From: Sphyrna mokarran
Lineage: Eukaryota
Reading direction: 5' to 3'
DNA: 64,000 nucleotides
Assembly: GCA_024679065.1 (NCBI GenBank)
Contig: JAGIQG010000004.1
Coordinates: 62,496,001-62,560,000 of the forward strand
The translations under genes and the position numbers were made by a program. The first letter of the stretch is position 1. Every line of letters begins with the position of its first letter. Below are positions 5,300 to 59,560 of this stretch, in pieces. The notes below the pieces were generated by a model. It saw only the letters and a list, made by a program, of their open reading frames with translations. It did not search any database and was not told where the DNA came from.

Positions 5300-6720
5300 A
5301 ACATGGATAGCAATAGTGCCACCTCTGAGCGGGGACCAGAAGGGTCCCTCAACCGCTTTCTAGCGGACAAAACAAGGACCTAATTAAAAGTATGATGAAG
5401 GCAAAGTATAAGCCCCACGACCCGCTTGAAACACAGCGGGAGTGAGAAGGAAAGGAGCATGGATAACAAAGCTTGGATCCTAATATTAACGGATCATGTC
5501 ACCCTTGCAGAACGAGTTCACAAGAATGTACAAGGAAAGCAGGAGCAAGCTGCACAGCGGCAACACGCCACTGTGATGGCCACTAACCCTGTGCTGCCAG
5601 CACTGTCTGACTTCTCACCTGAACCTCCCAGTGAGGACTGTCCCGACTGGGAATGTTTAGTGAATGAAACGGGTCCACTATGCCCGACAGGGGAGAGCAT
5701 TCCATCTACCACCGACCCTTCATTCCAGAGCGTTATGGCAGCCCCGTTAAATTTGAGTGTGTCTCCGGGAGGTAAGGGGGAGACGGGCGAGGGCGATCTG
5801 CCCAGGCTCAGGTAAAGATAACTTCTGTATCCCTTACCCTGGGGGACACAATGAAACTGCTGGACAAATCCTGACCCTCCAGCCCAGACACAGTAACGCG
5901 ATCTTCTAGCAAAAACTTAAGGAGATGCAAATGTGTTACAATCTGCACGATCAGGATAAAGCAGGTATCCTGAGAGCCATAAGGCCGGAGAATTATTGGG
6001 CCCGGCTTCAGGCAGAACACCAGAACATGATACGGTGCGCTAACCTGAACGAGAGTCGCGGAGCGCAAGACCAAGCTCTGGCGGATTTTAAAGATGATAT
6101 TACCCAAACCTTGGGGAGAGTCCCGGTGAGTTCAAATGCAGTGCAGGGGAAGGAAGATGAAGCCCAGGAATATGAGCGACGGAAATTTGACGCCTTTGTG
6201 GCCCATGGGGGGATGCCCGATGCCGACAGACAGAATCCCACATTCCTCCAGCTATATAAGGACGGGCTGAGCCCAGCGCACCAAGCAATCTTAAAAAAAC
6301 AGGCTGGTAAACTTTAACACTTTCGATGAGTTAGAGAACTGGGCTATTACTGTAGACAGCTAACAGAGAAAGATCCAAAGCGCCAGGGCAGCGGTATCTT
6401 CTCTGGGAACTGACAGAGGGGGCTGCTACAGGTGTGGGAAACCTGGTCGTTATAAAAAGGACGGCCGAGTCCAGGCGCCCCAATCCTCCCACAAATGCCG
6501 CAAATGCGGCAGGATTAGACACAACGAATTAGTCTGCCTAGCAGGAAGTTCGCAAGGAAAGAGAGGCAGCCACCTCCCCCCCCCCACCCCCGACACAACC
6601 CAACCCCCAGCAGAGCCCCTGACTTAAAGGAGAATGAAGTCACCTCCGATACTGCGCACATCAGCCAACAGCAGCTGCTGGATGTTATACAGACTTTGAC
6701 GGCACAAAAGACCTGAATTG
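5300..6720 (+). pseudogene. gag: ERV gag (disrupted)
   Basis: ORF pieces 5426-5815 and 5925-6317 (MHR-like QGKEDEAQEYERR), plus knuckle CYRCGKPG(R)YKKD(G). Confidence 0.75.
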
Positions 6721-9700
6721 CGTCGGCGCCCACCCCGGGAGTCGACCACTGTATCTGGGTTAACGCATTGTTAGGGGGCCGGTGATGCAAAATATTAATA
6801 GATAGTGGTCCGTGATATCCCTCACCAACATGGCTTTTCCTTCAACCCATCATTCCATCATAGTACTGCGGGTAGAGGGAAATAGGACTACAGCTTATCA
6901 GAGCGAGGCAGTCCTACTTGAGATCGAGGACATTTTACTCCCAGTACATTCCTGGGTATGCCCGAACTAAGAGGGAACGATCTTGGGGATAGACCCCCTG
7001 GGGGGGTTAGGGGTGGTGGTGGACGCTTTTAACAAGCGCCTGCTGTGGACCGCGAGGAAGGAACACAAAAGTGGGATTCAGGGATACTGGGTCCCCAATA
7101 AAAATGTAAAGGTTCGCCTTTACCTAACGGAAGGAAACAGTGCACATGGACACGCCTCCCCCAAAAGTTCCACAACAGCCCCAACATTTTCCACCAAGTT
7201 ATGAGTGAGGCCTTCGAGGAATGCGATCTGTCCCCATATGGAAGTACCTTCCTCCAATACGTGGACGGCATCCTTATCAACTCCACCAACCTCAGGGGAC
7301 ATATAGGAGCCCTGTTCACAATCCTATGGGCCTTGCAGGTTGCGGGGTTTAAAATCAACCCAACCAAAGCACAGATTGCATAACCTGAGGTCTGGTATTT
7401 AGGGCATAAGTCAGGGAAAGAAAGCCCTCCTCTCCGATCGGAAGACCGCAGTTGTAAATATGCCCCGTCCAATCATAGTCCAAGGGGTGCGCAGAGTTAT
7501 GGGACTCTTTAACTACTGCCAGAATTTCATTGACCAATTCGCATCCCTGGCCGAATTCAGCGGCTGGTCAAAGGGGGGAAAGCCAGGAACAATCGAGTGG
7601 AGACCCGAGCAGGAGGTAGCACACACCTGTCTAAAATCAAAGTTATTAGCAGCCCCAGCCCTATGCCTACCCACGATAATTAAACCCTTCCACCTCTTTT
7701 ATGACTCAGAAGAAGGATTTTATAGCTCCGTGGTAACCCAAGAATATGGGGGCACCATGCAGCCGGTGGTACATTACTCTACTCGGCGGTCCCCGATAGC
7801 CAAGAGACTGCACAAATGTGTGGCGGCGCTAGATTGCGCCGCCTGGGCAGTCAGGGGATGCGAACCAATCACTATGTCAGGACAAATCATTCTACATATA
7901 AAACGCACTATTGTCGAGCTCCTGAATACCGACCGGCACCGGACTGTGTCGGACCCCCGGCGGGCCAATTTGGAAGCGGTTACTCCTCCCCCGGGACAGT
8001 CAGTCCAGAAAGCGTGGGATACCGGGAAAAACCCCGCAAAGGGGCTCCTATCAGCGGGAAGTCCGCACTGCTGCTGGATTAACCCAGACACTGAAACAGA
8101 GGAAGGGGTTAATGACCAACCCCTAAATAATCCAGGCATCACACTGTATGTAGACGGGTCCCGAAGATAAGGAGAGAGACAATACTGTACAAGCTGGGTA
8201 ATAGTAGATCAAGAGGGGACACGGATGGTAAAATGTATCATGAGTGGCGAAACCTCCGCCCAAGTGGCCGAACTCATAGCCCTCACAGAAGCCTTAAAGA
8301 TGGGAAGGGAAAAGCGAGCAAATGTGTATCTTGATAGCCAAATGCGTTTGGGGTGGTCCACGATTACATGATGGCCTGGAAAAGGTTTATCACCACAGGG
8401 GAGGGTCGCCTAAAGCATGAAAACATAATTCGAGATCTGGTAGCTGCAGCCAGGCTGCCTTTAGAAGCAGCCGTAATTAAGATAAAAGCCCACCAGCGGG
8501 TAAAGACAACAGAACAGAAGGGAAACCAATTAGCAGACGCTGCAGGCAAGGGTGCAGCGGGGGAAGCCCACCCGCACATAGCCGCTACCACAACAGCACC
8601 CTCTGAGGAAGTGGATATTTATAAGCTGCAGGGTAATGCAAGCCTAGATGAGGTGACACAGTGGGAACAGGCAGGGGCATCCAGGGACAAAGACTGAGTG
8701 TAGAGCAAAGGGCACCAAGTAGCTGCCCCCTCGTTTATATGCACTGACCTCCTCTGGCTCCACCACGAGCTGGACCACTTCAGCCGGGATGGGACTCTGG
8801 CCCGACTGTCAGCCGATTGATGGTGGCCAGGGATGGGAAGGGATGTAGCCGAACACTGCCAGCGCTGTATCATATGCGTCCAGCACAACCCCGGCCGATC
8901 CCTGAGAATCAAACTGGCTCACCAACCTCCACCAAAGGGACCCGGGGAAAAGCTCCAAGTCGACTTCATAGGCCCTCTGCCCACTAGCCGAGGGAAGAAA
9001 TATTGTTTAGCCTTAACTGATCAATTCACCCGCTGGGTAGAAGCATTCCCAACTGCGGATTGCGAAGCCGCCACTATAGCCTGCATTTCAGCGTACGAGA
9101 TCATCCCGAGGTGGGTAGTGCCACTACAACTGGACTCCGACCAAGGGACAAACTTCACAGGCAAGATAATGAAACAGACTTGTAAAACCCTGGGAATTCG
9201 ACAGCGATTCCATATCCTGTACCACCTTCAGAGCTTTGGGATGGTCGAGCGAATGAACCGCACACTTAAAAATGCGATCGCCGAGACAGGTCAGGGGTGG
9301 GTAGACGTCCTACCCTGTATTTTAATGCGCCTACGAGCCATCGCAGGCCGCACCATAGGACTCACACCATTTGAATTAATGACGGGGATGGCAATGAGAC
9401 TCCCAGAAAACATAGCAGGAAGAGGAGAAGAATTGGCACCCCTTCGAGATAAGTTGAGGAGATATGTTCAAGAGTTAGACCATCAACTCAGAGAGCTATA
9501 CCACGCAACCAGAGACCAACAGGCTATAAGAAACCAGGATAAGAAACATGATATCTGTCACACCACTACACTTCCCTGAGTAATGGATAACGTTTTAATC
9601 CGAATGGCTCCCGACAAACAGGGTTCTCTCTGAAATGGATAGGATGCCATGAGATTATCCTCACTAGCAACACGTGCCTGTGTCGATATCAAAGTGAAAG

Positions 9701-16645: not shown

Positions 16646-16774
16646 TTAATCATTCGCTTTCACCGCTGCGTACGTTAATCCTGTTTCTCGGAATGTTGTT
16701 TTCGACGATGACCTGGAACCTATCAGATTCAGAGCAACGTAAGTCAGTTTGCTCTCAGCGGTGTTCTGTATGGC
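16646..16774 (-). CDS. Exon 7, terminal coding exon with two ITIMs
   Basis: Acceptor ttgatttacag, phase 0. AIQNTAESKLTYVALNLIGSRSSSKTTFRETGLTYAAVKAND* contains ITIMs LTYVAL and LTYAAV. Total CDS is 1041 nt with no internal stop. Confidence 0.85.
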   Translation of the reverse strand, partial: AIQNTAESKLTYVALNLIGSRSSSKTTFRETGLTYAAVKAND

Positions 16775-16915
16775 CTGTAAATCAACGACAGGGAGTAACT
16801 TACAATTTATTAAACTAAATTGTATTGAAATTGCATCAAATTGATTTTCAATATAATTTCAAAAACAAATTATAACAGAGAAGGTTAACGTTTCTATTTG
16901 CGAGCTGAGAATTAC

Positions 16916-17026
16916 CTCTGCATATACCGTCTGTTCTCTGTTTTGTTTCGGCATTTCGCCTCGCTTGGAATCGGTCAGATTAAGAGCAGCATACATCAAC
17001 TTGCTTTCGGCTGAATTTAGCTCCTT
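16916..17026 (-). CDS. Exon 6, cytoplasmic ITIM exon
   Basis: Acceptor aatccctag, donor GAG|gtaatt, 111 nt, phase 0-0. KELNSAESKLMYAALNLTDSKRGEMPKQNREQTVYAE contains ITIM LMYAAL. Confidence 0.85.
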
Positions 17027-17392
17027 CTAGGGATTCAATGTTTACTATTCAGTAAGTTTCATCTTTCGGACACAAGATCTTGCATACATACATACAAATT
17101 AGAAGCAGAAATCGGTCTCTCAATCTCTAAAACCATTTTGCTATTCCATAAAACATGATTGGTCTCCGTGTGACCTTAAGTACACTGTCCTTTCTACGCC
17201 CTGAATCTTCAAGCTTTGTAAACTGCCCTAATTAATTAAACTCCACAAGCATTTACAAATATCCCTCTAATCTCCTACAGTTCCTTGGCCTTTATTCACA
17301 GTAGTTCTTTACTTTGAAAAAAAAGCAAATCAGCATTAGTGTTTTTTTTTCAGTTTTCTCCTTTGTCAATCAGATAAAAATCAATCTTGAAC

Positions 17393-20300
17393 TACAAAGA
17401 GCAAAGAAGAACAAAGAACAAAACAGCACGGGAAACAGGCCCGTTGGCCTCACGAACCCGCGCCGCCACCTCGATGCTCCCCCTTCTACCCATAATCCCT
17501 GTCTATGTTTATAGATCTATGCATTGGAACCAAATTTGCGACAATTTAGAGAGAATTTGTTCTGCCAATGAGCCTAAGAACGCATCTTTGGGATGTGGAG
17601 GAAATCGGAGTGCCCAGAGAAAACCCACGCAAGCAAACTCCCACAGACATGGGCACAAATCCATGTATCTGCACAGCACAGCGATAGTCACTGAGCTGCC
17701 GTGTTGCCCATCAAATGGTCAAGCGTACACTAACGACGTGAAGCACTAGGATATTCTTGATAAATTCAAGAGCAGCCCTCTCACAACCCATCGCGTGTAT
17801 GCCCCTTGTTAGACAACAAGGCGGACCGAAGTACCTGGAGGATAACACAAACACATCATTGGCAATTTACACAATTCTTAGGGAAATCCCAAGTCTCCTG
17901 ATCCCCATTTTAAATCAGTCTGCTATATCCCTCCATTCCCATTCTGTTCATGTGCCCATCTAAGTACCTCTTAAATAAATCCAGAGTGCCTGCCTCCACC
18001 ACTTTACTTGGCAGCACGTTCCATACCCCCACCGCCCTCTGTGTGAAAAAACTCCCTCTAGCATCCAAATTATACCTTACCCCCCTCACCCTAAGCCCGT
18101 GATACTTCTCACTATTTGAGTCCATCCTAGGAAAAAGCTGAACCCTGTACTCTACCTATACCCCTCATAATCTTGTACACCTCTATTAGATCTCCTCTGA
18201 GTCTATGTTTTCTAAGGAAAACAGCCCCAATTTGCCTAACCTCTCCCCGTAACTCAAACCTTCCATACCAGGCAGCATCCTAGTAAACTTCCTCTGCACT
18301 CTCTCCACAGTCTCCACGCCCTTCCGTTAGTAAGGCGACCAGAACGGGATGCAGTATTCCAAATGAGGTCTAACCAACGTTTTATACAACTGCAACATTA
18401 AAGGCCAGCTCTTGTACTCCATACTCCTTCCTATAAAGGTTAACATGCCATATGCTTTCTTCACAACCTTCTCCACCTTCTCTGCCACCTTCAGAGATTT
18501 GTGCGCCTGCAACCCCAGATCCCTCTGCGTTTCTATACTCTTAATATGTCTATCCTTTATCATATACCTCCCCCTTACATTCTTTCTCCTGAAATGCATC
18601 ACCTCACATTTATCAGGATTGAATTCCATCTGCCATCTATCTGCCCAAGCTACCAGCCTATCTATGTCTTGCTGTATCGCCTGACAATGCTGCTCACTAT
18701 CTGCAAGTCCAGCCATCTTTGTATCGTCTGCAAATTTGATGATCACTCCACTTACTCCCTCTTCCAAGTCATTTATATATATTACAAATAGAGGAGGTCC
18801 CAGTACCGAGCCCTGCGACACACCACTAGTGACCAACTTCCAGCTAGAAAAACACCCTTCCACTATTACTCTCTGTCTCCTATTACAAAGCCAGATACTT
18901 CTCCATCTAGCTACCTGAAATCCATTAGCCTTGACCTTTTCAACTAACCTCCCGTGAGGGACTTTGTCAAACGCCTTACTGAAATCCATATAGACGACAT
19001 CAATGGCTCGCCCTTCGTCCACCGTTTTCGTCACCTCCTCAAAAAATTCTATCAGATTTGTAAGGCACGACCTCCCCTTAACAAAGCCATGCTGTGTATC
19101 TGTAATCAGATCGCAACGTTCTTAGATCCTATACGTCCTGTCTCTAACAATCCCCTCGAACAGCTTCGCTACCACTGATGTCAAACTCACCGGCCTATAA
19201 TTACCAGGGTTATCCCTACTACCCTTTTTAAACAACGGTACAACATTAGCTATTCTCCAGTCCTCTCGACCTCACCTGTGTCCAAAGAAGAGACAAAGAT
19301 TTGCGTCAGCGAGCCAGCAATTTCACCTCGCGCCTCCCTAAGCAGCCTGGGATAAATGCCATCAGGCCCCAGAGATTTATCACTTTTAATGTTACCTAGA
19401 AGCTCTAACACTTCCTCCCTCGGTATGGATATTTCCCTCAACTGGTCTACATCTCCCTCAGTGACAGGGCCGGTCTACAAGCCCTTCTCGTTCGCAAATA
19501 CTGACGCAAAATATTCATTCAGGATCTCTCCCACTCCCTCGGGCTCTAAGCACAGTTCTCCTCCTCTGTCCCTAAGAGGTCCTATTTTTCCTCTCACCAC
19601 CCTTTTATTCCTAACATAGGAGTAAAACGCCTTTGGATTTTCCTTAATTCTATCTGCTAAAGCCATTTCATGCCCCCTTTTTGTCCACCTAACTCCCCGT
19701 TTGACCTCACTCCTACTCTCTCTATATTCCCCCAACGCTCTCTCCGTTCCCAGCGGCGTTGACTTCACATAAGCCTCTCTGTTCTTCCGAACCAAGTCCT
19801 CAATATCCCTAGTAATGCACGGCTCTCTAATCCTACCTTTGCCATCTTTCCTCTCAGCTCGCACGTATCTTTCTTGCAACATTTTCAGTATTCCCTTGTA
19901 AGAATCCCACACTCCAAGCATGGATTTACCCTCGAACAACCGTTCCCAATCAGTTTCCAAATGTTCCTGCCTAATCCGACTGTAGCTTAGCCTTCCTCCA
20001 ATTCAGCACCCTCTCCCTCTGGGAATAATATCCTTTTCCAACTGTATCCTAAAATAGGCAGAATTGTGGTCACTGTTAGCCACATGTACCCCTACTACAA
20101 CTTCAACCACCTGCCCTGGCTCATTACTCAGAACTAAATCCAATAAAGCCTCCTCTCTAGTTGGACTAGCTACATACTGCTCCAATGATCCTTCCAGTAC
20201 ACAAATTCCTCCCCGTTCGAATCTCCAGCTCTAGGTACCTTCCAATCCACCCCAGTGAGATTAAAATCTCCCAGTATAACAACTTTGTTCTTTCTGCACC

Positions 20301-20830
20301 TGTCCAAAATGTCTTTACGTATGCGTTCTTGCACTGCCCGTGGGCTGTTGAGTAGCCTATAATACACCCCTAGCATAGTTATTGCTCCCTTCCTATTCCT
20401 CAACACTACCCACAGTGACTGAAATCCTAACTCCTCTGTATTGTCTTCTGTCTGCACTGCTGTGATACTCTCTCCAACTAACAACGACATTCCCCCATCT
20501 CTTCTGGATCTTCTTCTGTCAGGCCTGAAAGATTTATACCCAGAAATATTCAGCTGCCACTGCTCGCCTTCCTTTAACCACGTCTCCGTTACTGCAAACG
20601 CATCTAAGTTCCTTGCAAACATTAAGGCCCTAAGTTCATCTGTTTTTCCTGTTATGCTCCTCGCATTGAAACAGACTCACTCCAGACGTCCAAGCACCCT
20701 CGGAACCTCCTTCTTCCTGGTGTATTTCCTCTCATCCAAGCTTACACAGTCTCCCATCTCGCTCCCTACCGAGCTATCGGTGTCATCCCCCCACCCCCAC
20801 CCTTGCCCCCTCCATATAAATTAAATAAAC
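17393..20830 (-). mobile_element. CR1-B-type LINE with near-complete degenerate ORF2, in receptor intron 5
   Basis: APE endonuclease (FNARSI, AVTETWL, LGDFN, SDHN) and RT ORFs 18327-19034 etc., plus the long 3'UTR module. Confidence 0.92.
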
Positions 20831-20929
20831 ATGCCTTCACCGCTCTCTGATTAAATCAGTTCTACAGATGCATGGCCCGCTGAGACAGAAACAAATCAAA
20901 TCTCCTCATCAACATCATAAATGGTAAAT

Positions 20930-21830
20930 TTTGTTTTTTATTAAACAGCATCACCCAATTTCATCTTTTATTACAAAGTATCACATTCTTGGAACGTCTG
21001 TCCTGTCAAGACAACTCAGCATTTTTTTACTTTTCAAAAGATTACTTAGTCTTCTAAAGTGAAGAGTGTATCGACCCAATCTGTTAAAAATGTCCTCATT
21101 AAGTAACACGTTCATCTCAGCAATCAATGTGGTGAACATGTGCACTACAACTGACACTACATTTTTTTCAACAAAATAAAAGGCCAAAATGAGCCTACTC
21201 CAAGTTTCCTGATAGTTAGGTAGTCTTTGATAAATGCTATCACCTATGTCATGTGATCTTCCTATGTGTAACCTTTGATGTGGAGCATTATCTAATGCCT
21301 TTTTGAAATCCAGATACAGGAACTCTACAGGTTCGGTTTTATTTGCGTTGCTTGTTACTTTCTCAAATAACTCACACATTACGTAATGTAAAAAAAAATC
21401 CAGGCTACAACCCCATATTTACTCTGCTAATCTCCACCAGATTTTCCAAGTGCCCTATTAAAAATCCTTTATTAATAGATTACAGCATTTCCCCAAAGGC
21501 AGATGTTAAGCTAATTGTCCTGTCGTTCTGGAATTCTGCTTCCCTACGTTCTTGAACAAAAGAGCTACATTGGCTGTTTTATTCACTGCCAGAAACAAGG
21601 ACATTTTGAAAATTTAAATTCAAGTCATCCATTATCTCAGCAGTTATTTATTGAAGGACACTCGCAATAGTTGCCTCACGCTTTGGAATTTTCAGATCTT
21701 TCGTTGTGTTTTTTTTTCTCAGCAACATCATCCTGCTGAAAATAATAATTTTACGTTCTTGATTCCGTTTTGCATCGAGAGATCCAATTATTTCTGGTAT
21801 GTCTTTTGAATCCTCTACAGTGATACCTGT
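20930..21830 (-). mobile_element. Old CR1 remnant
   Basis: ORF 20981-21379 has a degenerate YLDFKKALDNAPHQRL motif. Confidence 0.65.
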
Positions 21831-22170
21831 TTCATTGATTCTGCTTTCGCTTGATTGACATTATTAATTCGTCAGACTCGCTCTTTGAACGAACAGCACT
21901 TTATAAGTAATTGTTTTTACAACACCTGCGGAAACTCTTCCAATGTGTGCTGCATGTTCATAGCTAATACTCGGTCCTGCTCTGTTGTTTCATTTCATTT
22001 TTACCATTAATCGCTGTAATTTATGTAACTTGTTCGTCTAATCTGCCAGTAATCTTAAGGGAATTGATTTTGTTTAGTTCAATTTGATCCTAACTTCCTT
22101 AGTTAGCCTCGGATGATATATCCATCTCCTCGAGATTTCTTTTCTTTCTAACTCAAATGACTGAGAATTA

Positions 22171-24745
22171 GAGAACTTAGAACATAGAACATAGAACAAT
22201 ACAGCACAGAACAGGCCCTTCGGCCTTCGATGTTGTGCCGACCAAAATAAAAAGCAATGCCCCTCCTAACTAAACCATTCCCTTCTCATCCATATACTTA
22301 TCAACTAACCTCTTAAACGCCACCAAACTTGGCGCATCTACAACAGCTGCAGGCAGGGCATTCCACTCCCTAATCACTCTTTGAGTAAAGAACCTACCTC
22401 TGATATCCGTCCTATAACTCATACCCCTTAATTTAAAGCTGTGTCCCCTCGTGCTAGCTTTCTCCATCCTAGGAAAAAGGCTATCACTGTCCACCCTATC
22501 TAAACCTCTAATCATCTTATATGCTTCAATAAGATCCCCCTTAGCCGCCTCCTTTCTAACGAAAACAACCTCAAATCCTTCAACCTCTCTTCATAGGACC
22601 TGCCCTCCATACCAGGCAACATCCTGGTAAACCTCCTCTGTACCCTCTCCAATGCCTCCACATCTTTCTTATAATGTGGCGACCAGAACTGCACACAATA
22701 CTCCAAGTGCGGCCGCACTAGAGTTTTGTACAGCTGCAACATGATGCTGCGGCTCCTAAATTCAATCCCCCTACCAATAAAAGCTAAGACTCCATATGCC
22801 TTCTTAACAACTTTATCCACTTGACTGCCTACTTTCAGGGATCTATTGACACATACACCAAGATCCTTCTGTTCCTCAACACTATTAAGAGCCCTACCAT
22901 TAGCCCTATACTCTACACATTTATTGTTCCTGCCAAAGTGCATTACCTCACACTTTTCCACATTAAACTCCATTTGCCACCTCTCGGCCCAGCTCTGCAA
23001 CTTGTCCAAGTCACTCTGTAAACTAAAACACCCCTCTTCACTATCTACCACACCACCAACTTTAGTATCATCTGCAAATTTACTGATCCATCCCTCAATA
23101 CCCTCATCCAGATCATTTATAAAAATTACAAACAGCAGGGGCCCCAAAACAGACCCCTGAGGCACACCACTCGTCACCGAACTCCACGATGAATATCTCC
23201 CATCAACCACCACCCTCTGTCTTCTATCTGCCAGCCAATTCCTAATCCAATTAGCTAAATCACCCTCTATTCCACACATCTGCATTTTCTGTAGAAGTCT
23301 TCCATGGGCCACCTTATCAAACGCCTTACTAAAGTCCATATATACTACATCAACCGCCTTACCCCCATCCACCTCTCTGGTCACTTTCTCAAAAAACTCA
23401 ATGAGGTTAGTAAGGCATGACCTACCCTTCACGAAACCATGCTGACTATCCCCAATCAATTCATTTCTCTCTAAATAACTATAAATCCTATCCCTAATAA
23501 TTCTCTCCAATACCTTGCCCACCACAGAAGTAAGACTCACTGGCCTATAATTCCCAGGAAGGTCTCTCTTCCCCTTCTTAAACAATGGGACCACATTCGC
23601 CATCCTCCAGTCCTCCGGAACCACACCCGTAACCAACGAGGACCTGAAGATCAGAGCCAGAGGCTCTGCAATCTCCTCTCTTGCCTCCCAGAGAATCCTA
23701 GGGTAAATCCCGTCCGGCCCAGGGGACTTATCCAACTTCAAACCCTCGAGAATTTCTAACACATCCTCCCTATCTACTACAATACTCCCCAATTTGCAAC
23801 CCTGTACCTCAGTGCTCTCCACAGCTACATTTCCAGCACTCTGCGTGAATACCGAAGAGAAATATTTATTCAGTGCCTCACCAATCTCTTCAGGCTCCAC
23901 GCACAACTTCCCACTGCTGTCTATGACTGGCCCTAATCTTGCCCTAACCAATCTTCTATTCTTAACATATCGAAAGAAAGCTTTAGGATTCTCCTTAATC
24001 CTATCAGCCAACATCTTCTCGTGTCCCCTCTTAGCTCTCCTCAATTCACTTTTTACCTCCTTCCTAGCTAATCTATAGCTATCCATTGCACTACCTGAGC
24101 CTTCAAGCCTCATCCTGACATAAGCCTCCTTTTTCTTCTTAACCAGCAAATCAACTCTTTTCGTACACCAAGGCTCTCTTACTCGTCCATTTCCTCCCTG
24201 CCTGACAGGGACATACTTATCAAGGACTCGCAGCAGCTGCTCCTTGAATAAGCACCACATTCCAGATGTTCCCAGTCCCTGTAGTTCCCTAGTCCAATCT
24301 ATGCACCCTAATTCTCTCCTGATGGCCTCATAATTACCCTTCCCCCAGCTATAACTACAGCCCCCAGCTTCATGCCTATCCCTGTCCATCACTAAGGTGA
24401 ACGTAACCGAATTGTGGTCACTATCACCAAAATGTTCACTAACTTCCAAGCCTAACACCTGGTCTGGCTCATTGCCCAGCACCAAATCCAATGTAGCCTC
24501 ACCTCTAGTTGGCCTATCTACATACTGAGTCAAAAAACCTTCCTGCACACTCTGTACGAAAACTGACCCCTCTAACGAGCTAGAGCTATAGCTATTCCAA
24601 TCAATATTAGCAAAGTTAAAGTCCCCATCACAATTACCCTACTACTTTCACTCCTAATCAGAATTGACTTCGCAATCCTTTCCTCAACCTCTCTAGAACT
24701 ATTAGGAGGTCTGTAAAAGACTCCCAACAGGGTGACCTCTCCTCC
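22171..24745 (-). mobile_element. Young CR1-A LINE, 5'-truncated within the endonuclease
   Basis: 678-aa ORF 22512-24548 with intact RT motifs (FADD). Flanking ORF pieces are offset by single frameshifts. (gttctat)n tail. Confidence 0.97.
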
Positions 24746-25574
24746 TATTAGACATTCTCCTTGAATGTCTAATAATAGCACAACAGCTGTGGATGCTGGA
24801 ATAACAACAGAAAATGCTGGAACATCTGAGCAGATTGACAGCATTCGTAGAGAGAAAATGGAACCAAGTCTGGATCACCCTTCGTCAGAAGCTCTGACCC
24901 CTTGTCAGCCATGCAACCGCAGCATATTGCACTAACAAAATATCGAGTATGGAAATAGCAAAGATCAGAGACTATTACAGCACAGAAACAGGTCCTTCCG
25001 CCCTGCAAGCTGACATGTCAGCTTGTGAAAGAGAAATCAAAGGGCTGCCTGAACAGTGTAAATAGTCTTTTTTTTCTGAATCGTCCAGAGGATAAAAAAA
25101 GTTCTTAAGCAAAGAATAACGGGTGATCTGATTTTAAACCGTGTAAGGCGGAAAGGCAAAAATACTGCTCTCTACTCTCGTTACCGATTCTACGCTGAGA
25201 TTAGAAATTTGAATTTTATTTGAAATATATTTTAAATAAAGTATTTTTCAGCATGCTGCAGCTTGGTTTACACGACAAGAAATGCAAATCTGCGAATCTT
25301 ATCCGAACTATCTTTTGTAGCCGAAAAGACATGTCATATTACCTAATATAGATGAAAAGTTAAAACTGCATTGAAAAATTGAAATAGCTGGCAGTGTTTG
25401 CAAACGCTTTTCCCATTTTTGTAATTTTACTTGTTTTTGCATAAAGTTGTGTTTTTACAGAAAAGAGAAGTCAAGTCCAATGTCCCACGTGTTTAAAAGA
25501 GATTTATTTAATGTGATGTATCAATCATTCATCTGAACTTGAGAAGTTCACGACTGATAATAAAATGTTCTTAC

Positions 25575-25618
25575 CTCATCTGTATGCTGTGTAGTATTTA
25601 TTGATTTTTTCTTTGCAC
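25575..25618 (-). CDS. Exon 5, juxtamembrane cytoplasmic exon
   Basis: Acceptor ttttcactag, donor GAG|gtaag, 44 nt, phase 1-0. Encodes (G)AKKKSINTTQHTDE and bridges the phases of exons 4 and 6. Confidence 0.8.
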
Positions 25619-26041
25619 CTAGTGAAAATCAAAAAGGACAACGTAAAAATACGGGGCATATTTGTATTTGACTCTAACAAGTCATGGTGATACGCTAATT
25701 TCGTAATTTATATCAAAGTATTCAAACCAAACGAATTTGTTTCGCCCCCGTTTCTTTATTAAAGTTACGCAAACACCATTGAACTATTCAATTTACATTT
25801 TTATGGTTACATCTTTATAATGAGGTTCGGAAAATGAAGCTAAGAGAATTATAATGTCAGATGTTTACGTAATACATGAGTTGAAGCAACATATAAATGT
25901 GATGGTATTTTTCCGTCCGTTAATTATACCAATTATACAAATAAGCAGCTTTGCTCCCGCTTATAGTTACTCGAATCGGATATTTTAAGATTTTGCTTGG
26001 GAGTAAGTTAGTTCTTTCAGTGTGAAAATTCTCATTCATAC

Positions 26042-26149
26042 CTTTGCACTTTATGACTCCTATCAGTATCATTAGGGTCAACAATAGAATTGCAAGCGCA
26101 CCACCGGACCATCCACCGATCATAAGAATATTGATTTTAAAGGGATTAG
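26042..26149 (-). CDS. Exon 4, transmembrane segment
   Basis: Acceptor ttttctcattttgatag, donor AAG|gtatga, 108 nt, phase 1-1. ILMIGGWSGGALAILLLTLMILIGVI is followed by KCK; the TM is uncharged and has GxxxG. Confidence 0.9.
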
Positions 26150-26337
26150 CTATCAAAATGAGAAAATTTCTTGTAAGCCACATGCACATAGTTTTCAATA
26201 TCAAATGCATAATTTTCAATTGCACTGTGAATCGAACATCATTATATGAAATATAAAACTTCAGTATATCATTTAATTATCGATATTTATGCAGCTGTTT
26301 TGTGTATCGTTCAAAAAAGCGCAATTGAAACATATAG

Positions 26338-26640
26338 CTCATAGAATGCTACAGTCGTAGAATCCCTACAGTACAGAAGGAAGCCATGGAGCCTGCGTAG
26401 ACAAAATTCGCACGCAGGCTCTATCCCCACAACTCCACGTATTTACGCTTCTAAGGCCCCCGACACCAAGGCATAACTTAGCATGATTCACCTTACACAC
26501 ACACCTTTAGAGTATAGGAGGGGACCGGAGAACGATGAGGAAACCCGCTTTTTCGGAAGCAGAATGTGCAAACATTCATCCAAAGCCCGAATTGAACTCC
26601 GTCCCTCGTACTATAAGACAGTAGTACTAACCCCTGAGCA
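26338..26640 (-). mobile_element. Free V-SINE (HE1-like), degenerate
   Basis: Minus strand shows a tRNA head (gctcaggggttagtactactg; B-box ggagttcaattc), V core (tttgcacattct..gcgggtttcctc..ctccggtcccctcc) and CR1-type tail. Confidence 0.7.
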
Positions 26641-27151
26641 AGCTTATTGGAGAAACATCAGGAATGTTGAATAAGATGTCCATTGAATGGGCACATTCAC
26701 ATTCATGACTATACAAAACGCAATCGTTTCAAACTTATTGTGTCAACCAAAAAGCAATTAAAATGTCGTTCCAAGTTTCATTGCACCACACGCAGAATAT
26801 GTCCAAAAATCGCTTGAGCTTATCTTTCAAGGAAAGATTTATTACCGTCTGTTCACTCATCTTATCGCAATTATCTTTGATTCTACTTTTATAGCATTAC
26901 TAATGAGCAACAACGTTATAAATAAGGAATCAAGTTGTTCTAGTTTGTATCTGCAACTATATGAAAAGACTCAATTGTTTGATTCCACAGTTCAGGGATC
27001 CATCATTTTTCAGTGCCTCAATTGAACATCAATTCTGTATTATATTCTGAGTTGCCAAATTATGCGGCTAATCTGATTTATGGGAGCAATACTGAAGATT
27101 CAAACCCGTTAGTGATAAGGTTGCATGATGCAGTCTACTGCATATCCTATT

Positions 27152-27910
27152 TTAGAATAGAATAACAAATGTGTAGAGAATAGGGCTAATGGTAGGACAC
27201 TTAATAGTGTTGACGAACAGAGGGATCCAGGTGTATATGTGCATAGATCCCTGAAAGTTGGCAATCAAGTCGATAAGATTGTTAAGAAGGCATACGGAGT
27301 CTTGGCTTTTATTGGTAGGGGGATTGAATTTCGGAGCCGCAACGTCATGTTGAAACTGTACAAAACTCTGGTGCGGCCGTACTTGGAGTATTGTGTGCAG
27401 TTCTGGCCGCCACATTATAAGAAAAATGTGGAGACATTGGAGAGGGTGCAGAGGAGGTTTACCAGGATGTTGCCTGGTATGGAGGGCAGGTCTTATGAGG
27501 AGAGGCTGAGGGATTTGAGGTTGTTTTCATTAGAAAGCAGGCGGCTAAGAGGAGACCTTATTGAAACATATAAGATGATCAGAGGTTTAGATAGGGTGGA
27601 TAGTGATAGCCTTTTTCCTCGCATGGAGAAAGCTAGCACGAGGGGACATAGCTTTAAATTAAGGGGTGGTAGTTATAGGACGGATGTCAGAGGTAGGTTC
27701 TTTACCCAGAGGGTGGTGAGGGTATGGAATGCCCTGCCTGCAGCAGTTGTAGATGCGCCAAGTTTGGGGGCGTTTAAGTGGTCAGTGGATAGGTTTATGG
27801 ATGAAAAGGGAATGGTTTAGATTAGAGGGTCATTGCTTTTTTCTTAACTGGTCAGCGCAACATCGAGGGCCGAAGGGCCTGTTCTGCGCTGTAATGTTCT
27901 ATGTTCTATT
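27152..27910 (+). mobile_element. CR1-A-related 3' fragment in receptor intron 3
   Basis: ORF 27239-27820 (ORF2 C-terminus), gttctat tail, ctattt on both flanks. Confidence 0.93.
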
Positions 27911-28062
27911 TAAAACCAACAAATTTGGAAGCCTTCAACCAAATAGATTGATCAATATATGAGCATCAAGCTTCTCTAATAATAATTTCCGATGCATTAT
28001 CGTTTTTCATGCATTTTTGTGAAAGGCGAAAGGCTAAACAATCATCGTTCATATAAGATTAC

Positions 28063-28365
28063 CTTCATCAAAAAAGGTATAGCTGGTATTTGCTGGTATT
28101 GAGCTGGAAACGTGGTATATTTGACAGATATAAACTGTGCCTTGTTTGATCGCCTGCTGTTTCAGGGTGCTGACAACTTCAAAAAGCCCCTCGAAATTCG
28201 CTTGTCGTTCATTTTGAAATCCGCTGACAATTTGAGCACCGTTTTTGTACCAAGTGAGGTTAAATCCTTTAGGGTAAAAAGCCGCAGTTTTGCACTGGAG
28301 ACTAATAGTAGCAGATGATATCTCTTCAGATGATATGGACATAATTTTGAGGGGAATCGGTGGAG
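28063..28365 (-). CDS. Exon 3, C1-set Ig domain
   Basis: Acceptor ttgaatttag, donor G|gtaatc, 303 nt, phase 1-1. LQCKTAAFYPKGFNLTWYKNG...YICQIYH matches the C1 signatures CxxxxFYP, WxxNG and YxCxV/IxH. Confidence 0.93.
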
Positions 28366-30745
28366 CTAAATTCAAGATAACAATACACATAAATTGTGAA
28401 ATTAAGCTTCTGCTCAAAAAAATGTAACTTTATCAATTATGCACAGCTACTTCACGGCAGCAAATTGATGCAATAGTCAGTATTTTCATACTGTTGCGTG
28501 GTGTTTTTCATAGAAGAAACAACAAAACAGCACGGGAAACAGGCCCTTCGGCCCAACGAGCCCGCATCACCACCCCGATGTTCCCACCTCTACCCGCGAT
28601 CCCTGTCCATGCTTATAGATCTATGGATTAAAAACCAACTTTGAGACAATTTAGGGAGAATTTGTTTTGACAATTAGCCTAAGAACACATCTTTGGAATG
28701 TTGGAGGAAACCGGAGCACCCGGAGAAAACCCACGCAAGCACGGGAGAATGCGCAAACTCCCGCAGATACAGGCCCAAATCCATGTATCTGCACAGCACA
28801 GCGATAGTCACTGAGCTGTCGTGTTGCCCATCAAATGGTCCAGGTCAAGCGTACACTAACGTCGTGAAGCACTAGGATACTCTTGAAAAAAAAATCCAAG
28901 AGCAACCCTCTCATGACCCATCGCGTGTATGCCCCTCGTTAGACGACAAGGTAGACCAAAGCACTGCAGGATAAAAACAAGTCCATCAATATCATCATCT
29001 ATTTACACTTCCCAGGAACTCCCAAGGCTCATGATCCCTATTTTAAATCAGTTTTATATACCCTTCATTCCCATTCCTTTCACGTTCCCATCTAAGTATC
29101 CCTTAAATAATTCCAAAGTGTCTGCTTCCACCATCTTACTTGGCAGCGCATTCCACACCCCCACCACCCTCTATGTGAGAAAACTCCCTCTAGCATCGAA
29201 ATTATACCTTACCAACCTCACCCTAAGCCCGTGACCTCTCGTGCTATTCGAGCCCACCCTAGGAAAAAGCTTAACCCTGTTTACTTTATCTATACCCCTC
29301 ATAATCTTGTACACCTCTACTAGATCTCCTCTAAGTCTACGTCTTTCTATGGAAAAGAGTCCCAATTTGCCTAACCTCTCTTCGTAACTCAGACCTTCCA
29401 TACCAGGCAGCATCCTAGTAAACCTCCTCTGCACTCTCTCCAGAGTCTCCATGTCCTTCCGGTAGTAGGGCGACCAAACTGGACGCAGTATTCCAAATGA
29501 GGTCAAACCAACGTTTTATACAACTGCAACATTAAAGGCCAGCTTTTGTACTCTATTCCCCTTCTTATAAAGGCTAGCGTACTCTATGCTTTCTTCACAA
29601 CCTTCTCCACTTGCTCTGCCACCTTCAGAGACTTGTTCACCTGCACCACGAGGTCCCTCTGCGTTTCTATACTCTTAAAGGGTTTACCCTTTATCATATA
29701 CTTCCCCGGACATTGTTTCTCCCGAAATGCATCACCTCACATTTATCAGGATTGAATTCCATCTGCCATCTACCTGCCCAAGCTACCAGCCTATCTATGT
29801 CCTGCTGCATCACCTTACAATGCTCCTCACTATCCGCAAGTCCAGCCATCTTTGTATTGTCTGCAAACTTGCTGATCACTCCGCTTACTCCCTCTTCCAA
29901 GTCATTTATATGTATTACAAGTAGAAGAGGTCCCAGTACCGAGCCCTGCAGCACACCACTAGTGACCAACCTCCAGCTAGAAAAACACCCTTCCACTATT
30001 ACTCTCTGTCTCCTATTACCAAGCCAGTTACTTATTCATCTAGCTACCTGTCCTTGTACCCCATTAGCCTTGATCTTTTCAACTACACTCCCATGACGGA
30101 ATTTGGCAAACGCCTTACTAAAATCGACATAGACGACATCAACGGCTCACCCTTCGTCCACCGTTTTCGTCACTTACTCAAAAAATTCTACCAGATTCGT
30201 AAGGCATGACCTCCACTTAACAAATCCATGCTGTGTATACCTAATCAGATTGCAACGCTGTAAGTGCATATACATCCTATCTCTAAGAATCCCCTCCAAA
30301 AACTTCCTTACCACTGACGTCAAACTCACTGGCCTATAATTCCCAGGGTTATCCCTATTACCCTTTTTAAACAACAGTACAACATTAGTTATTCTCCAAT
30401 CCTCTGGGACCTCACCTGTGTCCAAGGAAGAGACAAAGATTTGCGTCAGAGAGCCAGCAATTTCACCTCGCGCCTTCCTAAGCAACCTGGGATAAATGCC
30501 ACCAGGCCCCGGAGATTTATCACTTTTAATGCTACCCAGAAGCTCTAACACTTCCTCCCTCGGTATGGATATTTACCTCAACTGTTCCACAGCTCCCTCA
30601 GAGACAGAAGCTGTCAACAAGCCCCTCTCCTTCGTGAATACCGACGCAAAGTATTCCTTCAGGATCTCCACCATTCCCTCGGGCTCTAAGCACAGATTCC
30701 CTCCTCTGTCCCTAAGAGGTCCGATTATTCCTCTAACCACCTTTT

Positions 30746-31640
30746 AGAACATAGAACATAGAACATTACAGCGCAGAACAGGCCCTTCGGCCCTCGATGT
30801 TGCGCCGACCAATTAAGAAAAAACAATGACCCTCTAACCTAAATCATTCCCTTTTCATCCATAAACTTATGTACTGACCTCTTAAACGCTCCCAAACTTG
30901 GCGCATCTACAACTGCAGCAGGCAAGGCATTCCATACCTTTACCACCCTCTGGGTAAAGAACGGACGGATATCAGAGGTAGGTTCTTTACCCAGAGGGTG
31001 GTAAGGGTATGGAATGCCCTGCCTGCGGCAGTTGTAGATGCGCCAAGTTTGGTGGCGTTTAAGAGGTTAGTAGATAAGTTTATGGACGAAAAGGGAAATG
31101 GTTTAGGTTAGAGGGTCATTGCTTTTTCCTAATTGGTCGGCGCAACAGGCCGAAGGGGCTGTTCTGCGCTGTAATGTTCTATGTTTTTACCAGGATGTTG
31201 CCTGGTATGGAGGGCAGGTCCTATGAAGAGAGGTTGAAGGATTTGAGGTTGTTTTCGTTGGAAAGGAGGCGGCTAAGAGGGGATCTTATTGAAGCATATA
31301 AGATGATTAGAGGTTTAGATAGGGTGGACAGTGATAGCCTTTTTCCTAGGATGGAGAAAGCTAGCACGAGGGGACACAGCTTTAAATTAAGGGGTATGAG
31401 TTATAGGACGGATATCAGAGGTAGGTTCTTTACTCAAAGAGTGATTAGGGAGTGGAATGCCCTGCCTGCAGCTGTTGTAGATGCGCCAAGTTTGGTGGCG
31501 TTTAAGAGGTTAATTGATAAGTATATGGAAGAGAAGGGAATGGTTTAGTTTGGAGGGGCATTGCTTTTTATTTTGGCCGGCACAACATCGAAGGCCGAAG
31601 GGCCTGTTCTGTGCTGTAATGTTCTATGTTCTGTGTTCTA
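30746..31640. mobile_element. Three abutting CR1-A-type 3' fragments (- 30746-30962, + 30963-31183, + 31184-31640)
   Basis: Each fragment ends in the CR1-A stem-loop and gttctat tail. Confidence 0.9.
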
Positions 31641-32230
31641 CGTGAATAATCACATCCGCCTGGATCCCCTCACCCTTCAAAATGCCCTGTACCCTGACAG
31701 ACACATCTTGCACCCCTGCTCCAGTGAGGTAAACTACCATCTGGAGTCCCGCCTTGGACCACAGAAGTGCCTATCTATTACTTTAACCCTCCCATCCCCC
31801 ACCACTATCTCCCTTTTAGCCTCTTTTCTCCCCTTTGAGGTACTCTGGTCCTCGTGCTTTGCCTTTTTTACCCCTCCGCCCTCGATATTTTGGGGGGCTG
31901 CCACTGGGGAAGTCTTTGGACTGTCTCCCTCTCCTTTTTCCCCTTCCTGACAGTAATCCACCTGTAAGTGTCAGGTTCCCCCCCACCCCGGCCCCTTAGC
32001 TCCTGCTCCGCCACGTTATTCTGCCTCCCTTCCACGATTGCTTCATTCTTCCTGACTAAAAATGCATCTTCTAATTGCCGAAGTAGTTGCTTGACCCGAG
32101 CCCTCAGACTCTGCAGCTCCAAACACTTGACGCATACGTGGACGTTCGGCAGAGGTCTTGCCTCCAGGAACTCCCACATATGACACCGTACACAGGTGAG
32201 GCGCCTTCCGTTAATCCCTGCCATGTTCAT
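31641..32230 (-). pseudogene. CR1 ORF1 N-terminal part (zinc finger, leucine zipper, SGNH esterase start)
   Basis: CVRC..CVKC followed by Leu heptads, then IVVGD(S/G) and GAGVQDVS..DVIIHV esterase blocks. Confidence 0.85.
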
Positions 32231-32927
32231 GAACACCTTTGGAGGTGCGAACTTCAATGGAAAACTCAGGCACACTGTGCCTGAGCCTGCTCTCCCCTAA
32301 GCCCCGCGAGCCAAAGCCCTTACATCTCTCTCTCTGCTTCCCTACTCACTCCCCTGCCCGCTCCCGACGCTACCCGCTGTCTACTGCCACTTTTTGTTTT
32401 ACACTCGCCGGTTTCCTTCCCAGCTCGCCCCAGGCCTAACTACAGCAGCAAAAAGCTCTCAAAGAGAGAGAGAAAAAAGCAAATTGAAAAATTCACACTC
32501 AGCCACCAGCACTTCCAAACACTCTGTCCCAGAGAACAATGAGCAATAGGTTTTCATAAGCTTCCAAAAGTTTGAACTGTGAGCTCCGCTCTCTTATAAT
32601 TAGCGAAAGGGCATTGAAAAATTAAACATTGCCAGCGACTATAAGATTATTCATCCAGTTACAATGTTCCCATATTGAAAACGAGTTTTAATTATTAGTT
32701 TTGCCTGTACTTTGCATGGCAAGCTTCGATTCAAGTTGCATTTTTTAAAACATAGGGAGTTGAGAAACTTTGCAGTTTCTCTGCAACTGCAAGTTTTCCT
32801 CTTTGTAGAACATCTGGCCTTCCAATCAAGTGAAAGTGTTTTCTGCGTTCTGCATTTATTTATTTTAATGATCTATTAACCGTCTTTGATTGACTCCATT
32901 GACTAAACATGACATATTTCAACTCAC

Positions 32928-33224
32928 CATATACGACAACTTGCACAGCAATATCGTTCACAATCGTCCGAAGCTGAATTTTGACTGCACAGTGATATAT
33001 TCCAGCATCCGGTATGTCGACATTCAGGAGATGAAGGTACGCTCCACCTTTCATTTTCTGGAAGCGTTTTCCACTGTCCTCCTGTAAAAATCCCTTATGA
33101 CCATCTTTCCACCAGAACGCCATTGCGTTTATAACGTCGGTATGGAAAGGGAAAGGACATCGCAAGGTTACGTTTGTGAATCTGAGCGCCTTTATGGGTT
33201 CCATATCCGACGTGCCCATAGCAA
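32928..33224 (-). CDS. Exon 2, V-type Ig domain
   Basis: Acceptor ttttcttttgatag, donor G|gtgagt, 297 nt, phase 1-1. Encodes NVTLRC..FWWKDG..AYLHLLNVDIPDAGIYHCAV (B-strand Cys, C-strand Trp, DxGxYxC). Confidence 0.92.
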
Positions 33225-33369
33225 CTATCAAAAGAAAAATGAACACACACATGCTAAATCATGCATTTGCAATAAAAGTTGATATGTACTATAAAAATGA
33301 AATCACCCATTCAGTCCACGCGTACCGTAACTGCTAGAGTTACTTTCGAGTTCCAGCATTTGTATCTAC

Positions 33370-33418
33370 CTGGAAGGAAAATCACGAAAAAACATTTGCC
33401 CCAAAGCGACCAACCCAT
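33370..33418 (-). CDS. Exon 1 (signal peptide) of V-C1-TM-ITIM SIRP-like receptor
   Basis: ATG at 33418-33416 gives MGWSLWGKCFFVIFLP, then a CAG|gtagat donor. Phase 1 joins in frame to the V exon (..LPVAMGTSDM..), forming a hydrophobic leader. Confidence 0.8.
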
Positions 33419-58399: not shown

Positions 58400-59560
58400 C
58401 CTCCACCACTTGGCTGGTGTTCGAAGGTATTCTCATCCTCCTTTCCCTCCTTCTCCTTATCTTCTCATCCTGCTGGTCATCCTCTCCAGTGACATCCAGC
58501 TGGTCATCCTTTACATCCTCTTCCTCTCCAAGAGGTCACTTGCTGCAGAGTCAGATTGTGCAAGGCACAGCATACCACTACTATGTGGGAGATCAGGGGG
58601 CTGTACTGGCGGTCCACTCCAGATAAGTCCAGGCACCAGAATCGCATCTTGAGGAGCCCAGTGCACCTCTCTACTGTCGGTTGAAGGCTACATGGATCTC
58701 ATTGTAGTGAATCTCCGCCTCAGTTACTTGCCTCTGCACAGGTATCACAACTATGTGAGAAGTGAATAACCATATCACCCAGGTGCAACCCATGCAGACT
58801 GGACTCCTCCTCAAATACTTCCAGGATGTCCGAGCTCCTTACAATGAAGCTGTCATGCATCCTGACTGGATGTCTGGTGTCGATGAGCATGATGGTCATG
58901 TTGTGGTCACACACGATTCGCATATTCAGGGACTGGAACCCCTTACTATTAACAAAACATTGTGGATTCAATAGAGGGGCTGGGAGGGTGACATGCGTGC
59001 AGTCGACCAGGCCTTGCACATTCAGCATCCACACAATTGCAACAAACTCCACAGTGTGGGCTTCCTGATGAACCTGGTTTAGATTGAATTTGATGTACTG
59101 CCCAGCCTGGCATACAGGATTTCAGTGATCTGCTTGACACAGGTGTGAACTGAAGATTGGGAGATGCCACAGATGTCTCTGCTCCCGTACTGGAAGGAGC
59201 TAATTGCATTGATGTTCAGAGCAGCGTTAATCTGACCACCACCAAGAGTGGGTGCCCCCCAATCCCTTGGTGCCAGGTCCTGTAGCAGGTTGCACAGGTG
59301 TTGCACGGTATTCTTTTCGGAATCAGAGACATCGGCGGCATAAGGTGTCTGATCGCGCCTCAAAGGACACTCATGCATGGAACTGCCGGGGTTTCTGCTT
59401 CCTCCTTCTCCTACGACCCCTGGGTGAATGGGCGGCTACCTCCTGCCTCGGACAGTCGTCTCCGTCTGATCCTGCAGGTGGAACAGCCTGCGACTCCGGG
59501 TCCCGCAAATTTTTCTACAAGTCCTCCTCCATGGCTCCAGCAACAACTAAGAGAACAGCA
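58400..59560 (-). pseudogene. Harbinger (HARBI1-like) DDE transposase, disrupted
   Basis: DICGISQSSVHTCVKQITEIL (HTH), VQGLVDCTHV, FVNSKGFQSLN..IVCDH, HDSFI, LGD. Confidence 0.9.

Follow-up and report, generated by a model that had tools for sequence, protein, structure and literature searches.

In this work we analyse a stretch of 64,000 nucleotides of the shark Sphyrna mokarran (GenBank assembly GCA_024679065.1, contig JAGIQG010000004.1, here also C993, positions 62,496,001 to 62,560,000 of the forward strand), which we call the window, and focus on an immunoglobulin (Ig)-superfamily receptor gene on its minus strand. An earlier, sequence-only reading of the window had proposed this gene; coordinates not given in Mb are window positions. 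When its seven exons are joined by GT-AG splicing (6/6 introns are GT..AG), they yield 346 codons in phase with a single terminal stop, encoding a leader, a V-like domain, a C1 domain, an uncharged transmembrane (TM) helix, and a tail with four tyrosines.

Exon 1 (33370..33418, minus strand like all others) is 49 nt long, has its ATG at 33418, ends in phase 1, and encodes the leader; it is 93% conserved in two paralogues. Exon 2 (32928..33224) holds the whole of a short V-like Ig domain with Cys39-Cys95 and a WW motif, lacking a J-like GxG, and exon 3 (28063..28365) encodes the C1-set domain (Cys140-Cys196), which matches Pfam C1-set above the cut-off (E 1.8e-10). Exon 4 (26042..26149) contributes the stalk and the TM helix with its GxxxG; the helix, uncharged as claimed before, aligns with the horn shark TM. 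The cytoplasmic part starts with a 44-nt spacer, exon 5 (25575..25618, phase 1 to 0), which has a horn shark match and is 89-93% identical to three paralogues. Exon 6 (16916..17026) carries a first two-tyrosine module, namely the ITIM (immunoreceptor tyrosine-based inhibitory motif) LMYAAL (Y279) and the non-consensus TVYAE/A (Y302). A second module with the ITIMs LTYVAL (Y316) and LTYAAV (Y339), followed by the stop codon, makes up exon 7 (16646..16774).

The same exon order is repeated in three neighbouring paralogues, one of which is intact across all seven exons. The second keeps the order and has a 1-nt deletion in C1; the third is truncated, with an insertion that breaks C1 and no V or leader detected nearby. 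These two broken copies lie at 62.58 Mb and 62.447 Mb of the contig, and the single-base deletion could be an assembly error. The best-scoring of the database proteins compared, the horn shark RefSeq model XP_067905931.1 (P0030), matches end to end with 183/346 identities (53%) and is colinear with the shark gene over all six junctions, including the YAE/A joint of exons 6 and 7. The recurrence in paralogues and the colinearity with horn shark put the gene model beyond chance, and the seven-exon, 346-residue gene of the sequence-only reading stands, with its intact frame, GT-AG introns, and end-to-end horn shark model. Splicing in S. mokarran is inferred from the genome sequence; a search of RNA runs returned three rows with shares of 0.06-0.15, which we counted as no evidence. 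The exon-6 acceptor is pyrimidine-poor and has an alternative AG 3 nt further on.

The V exon scores E 0.0017 and 19 bits against Pfam V-set, under the cut-off of 26 bits, and similarly against I-set; two paralogues and the horn shark protein pass the V-set cut-off. Its cysteines are 56 residues apart, in line with the 54-60 residues found in 102 of the 108 V domains matched in the family (the other six being longer), whereas antigen-receptor V domains have 65-75 residues between theirs. Neither the AlphaFold model of this V nor that of a horn shark paralogue contains a strand of three residues or more between C and D, i.e., C' and C'' are absent from both. A strict J-like GxG strand motif is present in 76/108 V domains and missing from this gene and its nearest kin. 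By fold, the V domain alone finds I-set and V-set domains tied at Z 10.7-12.1, with NKp44, IgNAR V, and TCR V at Z 11-12; SIRP and NKp30 are missing from the 50 rows listed, an absence that rules nothing out. The domain is a shortened, single-exon VJ-type V that has degenerated further in this gene's subfamily. The earlier description of the receptor as antigen-receptor-shaped is not supported as stated for the V domain, given the cysteine spacing, the lack of C'/C'' in the model, and the lack of GxG. We reject a rearranging locus because the V and its own G-strand share a single exon spliced to C1. That the gene encodes a V-C1-TM receptor in a cartilaginous fish, germline and non-rearranging, and putatively inhibitory by its motifs, is upheld.

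The four tail tyrosines (279/302/316/339) stand in LMYAAL, TVYAEA, LTYVAL, and LTYAAV with a spacing of 23/14/23; three are in ITIM consensus, and TVYAEA lacks the hydrophobic residue at +3. Exons 6 and 7 are homologous to each other, with a local score of 57 that 0/2000 shuffles reached. Across 40 family tails, 47 two-tyrosine modules (an ITIM plus a second tyrosine) were matched, 45 of them spaced 22-23 residues, and family proteins, chimaera included, carry one to three copies. A hydrophobic +3 residue follows the second tyrosine in 22/24 last modules versus 6/23 internal ones (near-duplicate proteins and a single double count enter into these module counts). The donor of this gene immediately precedes that residue, giving TVYAEV on read-through and TVYAEA when spliced. 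The four-tyrosine tail is thus a duplication, internal to the lineage, of the family's two-tyrosine module, probably through tandem duplication of one terminal exon, and internal copies would have their motif degraded by splicing out just before the +3 residue of the second tyrosine. From the earlier claim of a SIRP-alpha-like four-tyrosine tail, the tyrosines, motifs, and spacing remain; the likeness to SIRP-alpha is not supported as stated, given the duplicated exon module and the degraded TVYAEA. Intron 6 (16775-16915) is 141 nt long, and its retention turns TVYAEA into TVYAEV, which fits the consensus of the ITSM (immunoreceptor tyrosine-based switch motif), with a stop 19 codons past the donor. 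The read-through product is common to the gene and its intact paralogue, and intron retention might possibly act as a splice switch of signalling type.

A V-exon search of the genome gave 38 matches among 44 scored candidates, all 38 on this contig. They form a group of 21 (54.19-55.03 Mb) and one of 16 (62.40-63.31 Mb), the latter being the window's cluster, while a single match lies at 50.24 Mb. The corresponding C1 search placed 39/50 matches there, mostly one per V; both counts are lower bounds and include pseudogenes. The family thus numbers about 38 V-C1 genes, which one contig carries in two clusters, and the multigene family suspected earlier is confirmed by this paralog search. Relatives occur in sharks, rays, and a chimaera (Heterodontus, Heptranchias, Scyliorhinus, Mustelus, Chiloscyllium, Hemiscyllium, Rhincodon, Cetorhinus, Pristis, Hypanus, Mobula, and Callorhinchus), and wherever record length is given, the members of each species sit on one long record. 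All 35 C1-profile matches at E<1e-17 are chondrichthyan. The automatic database names range from SIRP-alpha-like (the commonest) to tapasin-related, NCR3LG1-like, Ig lambda-like, and H-2 class II-like, and because its members are scattered under such misleading names the family is hidden in the databases. No description of it was found in the literature searched, including by five accession numbers and one locus identifier; provisionally, this chondrichthyan VJ-C1 paired-receptor family is auto-annotated yet apparently undescribed in that literature.

In a C1 tree of 99 rows and 101 columns (species-unlabelled database proteins excluded, except three), the 89 family rows form one clade (support 98/97) apart from 10 other C1 domains. 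The gene groups with uncharged-TM proteins of horn shark and whale shark (94/91), and an enclosing clade (98/93) also contains proteins with an arginine in the TM, including that of a gene at 62.96 Mb. Several S. mokarran genes pair with Mustelus proteins on short branches. Since subfamilies are common to several shark orders and rays, the radiation is old.

Two TM classes are found within the family. A TM profile run on the loci analysed recognised 27 TM exons; the TM exons of this gene and of the three paralogues nearest to it escaped the profile. Seven of the 27 have an arginine in the first helix turns (as read by eye), and four of these seven stop within the TM exon. Four more have an arginine at the outer boundary and were left unclassed; the remainder carry no charge and often contain GxxxG. 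With V, C1, and TM exons allotted to genes by order and strand, the V exon of one uncharged-TM gene is identical at 243/254 and 248/254 positions (96-98%) to the V exons of two oppositely oriented Arg-TM genes, and C1 exons of this set agree at 261/282. An Arg-TM relative of the window's gene, the one at 62.96 Mb, shares 57% V identity with it, and both TM types recur in other species within the 98/93 clade. Clustered genes, similar ectodomains, and opposite TM/tail types, i.e., the marks of a paired family, thus occur together: the family consists of paired receptors, with uncharged-TM, ITIM-tailed genes beside Arg-TM, tail-less ones. The activating-type twins are our main point and were absent from the sequence-only reading. 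The minus-strand genes at 54.19-54.52 Mb, with an uncharged TM, and the plus-strand Arg-TM genes at 54.87-55.04 Mb face each other and have exons 93-98% identical, which suggests an inverted duplication with gene conversion.

Probably, then, the gene belongs to a large chondrichthyan family of paired Ig-superfamily receptors, germline-encoded and with a short V(J)-C1-TM-tail layout, and is an inhibitory member of it that recruits SHP-1/2. What was observed of this reading is the structure of the gene, the size of the family and its clustering, the division into two TM/tail classes, the modular build of the tail, and the genomic neighbourhood; the mechanism draws on ITIM and paired-receptor biology. 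The protein would be a type I membrane receptor on leukocytes that is clustered by ligand binding at its V domain, after which Src-family kinases would phosphorylate the tail tyrosines. A tyrosine pair 23 residues apart, most likely the conserved distal Y316/Y339, would dock the two SH2 domains of SHP-1 or SHP-2, and the docked phosphatase would damp activation signals. The Arg-TM, tail-less siblings would instead pair with an adaptor carrying an immunoreceptor tyrosine-based activation motif (ITAM) of the FcR-gamma/CD3-zeta type and activate through a near-identical ectodomain. Because such siblings are the usual sign of it, the gene may be a self-sensing inhibitory receptor with pathogen-decoy twins, under pathogen-driven turnover. 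Leukocyte surface expression, SHP-1/2 docking, inhibition, and ITAM-adaptor coupling are all deduced from motifs and, in our judgement, likely.

Several observations weigh against this reading. Two of the three closest paralogues are broken, and hence the subfamily turns over; in V, comparison with the intact paralogue gives a dN/dS (0.061/0.076) that is below 1 only weakly, with few changes. Y279 is missing from the horn shark counterpart and Y302 is non-consensus; the distal pair Y316/Y339 is retained there and therefore forms the conserved core. The database relatives are gene models, some visibly mis-spliced or fused, and the C1 tree has long outgroup branches, only 101 columns, and no SIRP, PRARP, or NKp30 rows. 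Lastly, a V-C1 model of the family finds its best fold match in a ligand, B7-H6 (Z 16.7, rmsd 2.9, 188 aligned).

The contig carries five classical cadherin tails at 0.9-24.5 Mb, as well as two trios that we named by arrangement only, one of forkhead genes (14.8-14.95 Mb) and one of TALE-homeobox genes (39.8-41.3 Mb). The family gene at 50.24 Mb has, at a distance of 30 kb, the GPS exon of an adhesion G protein-coupled receptor, which is closest to ADGRG1/G3. The genome's only match to the AMFR G2BR is found at 54.095 Mb and so is separated from the first cluster (54-55 Mb) by about 0.1 Mb. The AMFR identity is based on this unique match and an exon recognised by eye; the AMFR first exon found no match in solved structures or the Atlas. 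We take these cadherin, forkhead, TALE-homeobox, ADGRG, and AMFR genes to be human 16q genes. The named neighbours belong to the 54-55 Mb cluster and the 50.24-Mb gene rather than to the window's own cluster, and an exon hunt over 100 kb on either side of the latter (62.4-63.3 Mb) found no identifiable conserved neighbour.

The strongest competitor, which we still regard as unlikely, is that the family is a chondrichthyan SIRP branch: a stem SIRP with one C1, from which V-C1-C1 arose by C1 duplication, the amniote cluster moving beside NSFL1C later and the receptor sensing a CD47-like ligand as a 'don't eat me' signal. Shark family and SIRPs (SIRP-alpha/SIRP-beta of amniotes) are alike in joining a V exon to C1, in being paired, with an inhibitory member bearing two tyrosine pairs and activating siblings in one cluster, and in sequence, where SIRPs are among the nearest solved structures; SIRP-alpha-like is moreover the commonest NCBI automatic name. 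With a chimaera member as query, human SIRP-alpha is the top solved structure at 52.5 bits, by no margin over UrIg2 (51.1) and an Ig light chain (48.5). With the horn shark counterpart, light chains and UrIg2 come first (light chain 63.5 bits) and SIRP-alpha is 40th (54.9 bits). The family profile matches six structures at E<=1e-20 (titin, UrIg2, IgA, SIRP-alpha, an antibody, and SIRP-gamma); other profile searches of solved structures were swamped by multi-domain proteins. By fold, SIRP-gamma fits the V-C1 model worse than B7-H6 (Z 14.2, rmsd 5.2); Foldseek returned only antibody light chains at ~20% identity, and the Atlas search generic Ig clusters only. SIRPs, UrIg2, and Ig light chains are thus about equally distant in sequence, and no search picks an orthologue.

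Several features differ from those of SIRPs. Instead of V-C1-C1, a single C1 exon separates V and TM, here as in the horn shark counterpart; the V is short and, in this gene and its closest paralogues, lacks the J-like GxG of the SIRP G-strand. SIRP-beta activating forms have a TM lysine for DAP12, whereas the shark siblings have an arginine near the outer helix end. The two tyrosine pairs are present, but as they stem from exon duplication (in this gene with one degraded motif), with one to three modules across the family, this likeness to SIRP-alpha is poor evidence of kinship. The cluster has AMFR and an ADGRG-type gene as neighbours and not NSFL1C, the neighbour of the human SIRP cluster at 20p13; a translocation may have occurred in amniotes. 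Both SEP-domain genes sit on other contigs, the NSFL1C-type gene on C668 (45.10-45.28 Mb) between FAM110-like and MFSD2-like genes (recognised by eye). A profile search of the surrounding 180 kb yielded no exon for V or C1 (best match E 0.33), so the amniote SIRP site appears empty in this shark. Because the second C1, the neighbourhood, and the lysine-type partners all fail, we do not file the gene as a SIRP: the SIRP kinship suggested by the sequence-only reading is not shown as orthology, and the protein is predicted to act like SIRP-alpha or any other ITIM-pair receptor. One Chiloscyllium plagiosum (bamboo shark) model, P0010, already has the order V-C1-C1, in which the C1 copies are almost identical, followed by an ITIM tail, which favours a stem SIRP; its layout is either a SIRP-like architecture reached by exon duplication within the family or a model artefact. 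A CD47 family search found no match anywhere, as did its controls, and decides nothing. The origins of SIRPs are stated to be unknown in PMC9652883, and the supplement of the elephant shark genome does not mention SIRP, NKp30, or CD47 (PMC3964593).

Less probable still, the family could be the chondrichthyan counterpart of the PRARP/VJC1 lymphocyte receptors, i.e., co-inhibitory and co-activating relics of antigen-receptor precursors. PRARP combines a single-exon VJ, one C1, a TM, and an ITIM/ITSM tail. This architecture is seen in most of the family, namely a single-exon V with a GxG G-strand in the 76/108 domains above, one C1, and an ITIM plus ITSM-like pair, and in this gene with the J-like motif missing; PRARP is listed with SIRP, NITR, and NKp30 as joined-VJ genes (PMC11599192). 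On the other hand, the family's G-strand has no Phe/Trp before the GxG, its V is shorter than that of antigen receptors, and it is a cluster of about 38 genes with activating twins. Close sequence matches outside the cartilaginous fishes are lacking: no bony-vertebrate V-C1 protein is among them, as the purely chondrichthyan C1-profile matches illustrate. The reported linkage differs too, the cluster lying among 16q-type genes and PRARP being tied to the MHC (major histocompatibility complex) according to PMC10751288.

Two further groups of non-rearranging receptors invite comparison. Shark UrIg/UrIg2 share the single-exon V followed by C1, and UrIg2 scores at SIRP level; UrIg is described in PMC12227049 as a secreted, MHC-linked VJ-C1-C1-C1 homodimer, with UrIg2 in the antigen-receptor complex, whereas the product of the present gene is membrane-bound and has a single C1 plus a tail for signalling. 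The NITRs of ray-finned fishes are likewise paired germline receptors with single-exon VJ domains in a large cluster. The preprint bioRxiv 2021.06.11.448072 gives them a V and an I-type second domain, places holostean NITRs by runx1/donson, and cites evidence for homologues in cartilaginous fishes as lacking. Given the C1-set second domain of the shark family and its other synteny, we reject orthology to them.

That the family consists of V-C1 ligands of the B7-H6 (NCR3LG1)/tapasin-related kind, whose tails give reverse signals, we hold to be highly improbable. Such proteins share the V-C1-TM layout, B7-H6 is the top fold match, and some members are auto-named NCR3LG1-like or tapasin-related. 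However, identity to B7-H6 is only about 22%, many Ig-superfamily folds fall within 2 Z units, and the tree has no verified B7-H6 row. Pairing of ITIM and Arg-TM forms and homogenised ectodomains are receptor traits; to our knowledge, B7-H6 and tapasin-related proteins are ligands or chaperones without such paired forms. Scored with the family V profile, V domains of a lungfish multi-V-C1 protein reach only 18-22 bits. We gave up the B7-H6/KCNJ11 locus as the cluster's site since none of 18 Kir-channel and none of 16 PAX matches lie on the contig; an opioid-precursor family search gave no match anywhere, its controls neither, and is uninformative. Equally remote is a recent silent or decaying duplicate, or a protein with just two tyrosines through intron-6 retention: the broken paralogues, the weak exon-6 acceptor, and the consensus TVYAEV with early stop (also in the intact paralogue) speak for it, every intact frame and splice site and the horn shark model with the same YAE/A junction against it.

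Among the database proteins compared, the best family-V matches outside the chondrichthyans (up to 53 bits) are turtle proteins (P0130, P0117, and P0055) with 4-7 tandem single VJ-like domains, an ITIM-type tail or an arginine-bearing TM, and no C1; V domains of two longer unrelated Ig proteins score 18-27 bits. Mis-named as titin-, pIgR-, FcRL5-, or NCAM2-like, the turtle proteins may be another undescribed paired family, and we offer them as a lead only.

As a probable inhibitory member of a paired germline family, the gene belongs to a mechanism class that is already familiar, and it is itself a derived member. Its relevance to V-C1 ancestry, raised by the sequence-only reading, carries over to the family, with strict GxG in most V domains, and is weaker for this gene without it. 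Cartilaginous fishes are the oldest lineage with Ig, T-cell receptors, and MHC. A VJ-C1 cluster of ~38 genes of inhibitory and activating types, from a family found in chimaera, rays, and sharks, provides a defined locus for the question whether SIRPs came from V-C1 receptors; it also bears on the receptors with which shark natural killer (NK)-like or myeloid cells decide between self and pathogen, and on the assembly of ITIM tails from repeated exons. According to PMC12227049, single-exon VJ genes are actively sought as relics of antigen-receptor precursors. A bolder proposal, which we consider doubtful, is that cartilaginous fishes have in this cluster their main NK/myeloid complex of germline paired receptors, and that it represents a radiation, still surviving, of an ancestral single-exon VJ-C1 membrane receptor, from which SIRPs would derive by C1 duplication (as in the one bamboo shark model) and the turtle tandem-VJ receptors by C1 loss. 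If so, an antigen-receptor-shaped gene locus would exist outside the MHC-linked set, and signal strength would be tuned by tail-exon number and intron retention.

The window also contains mobile elements. Around 5400-9600 on the plus strand lies a fragmented region resembling a long terminal repeat retroelement or endogenous retrovirus, with broken open reading frames for reverse transcriptase, RNase H, and integrase. Long interspersed nuclear element fragments (endonuclease, reverse transcriptase) fill introns 3 and 5, e.g., at 22512-24638 (minus strand), and many other intronic sites; their short tandem tails look CR1-like. A DDE_Tnp_4 (Harbinger-type) transposase fragment is found at 58720-59435 on the minus strand.

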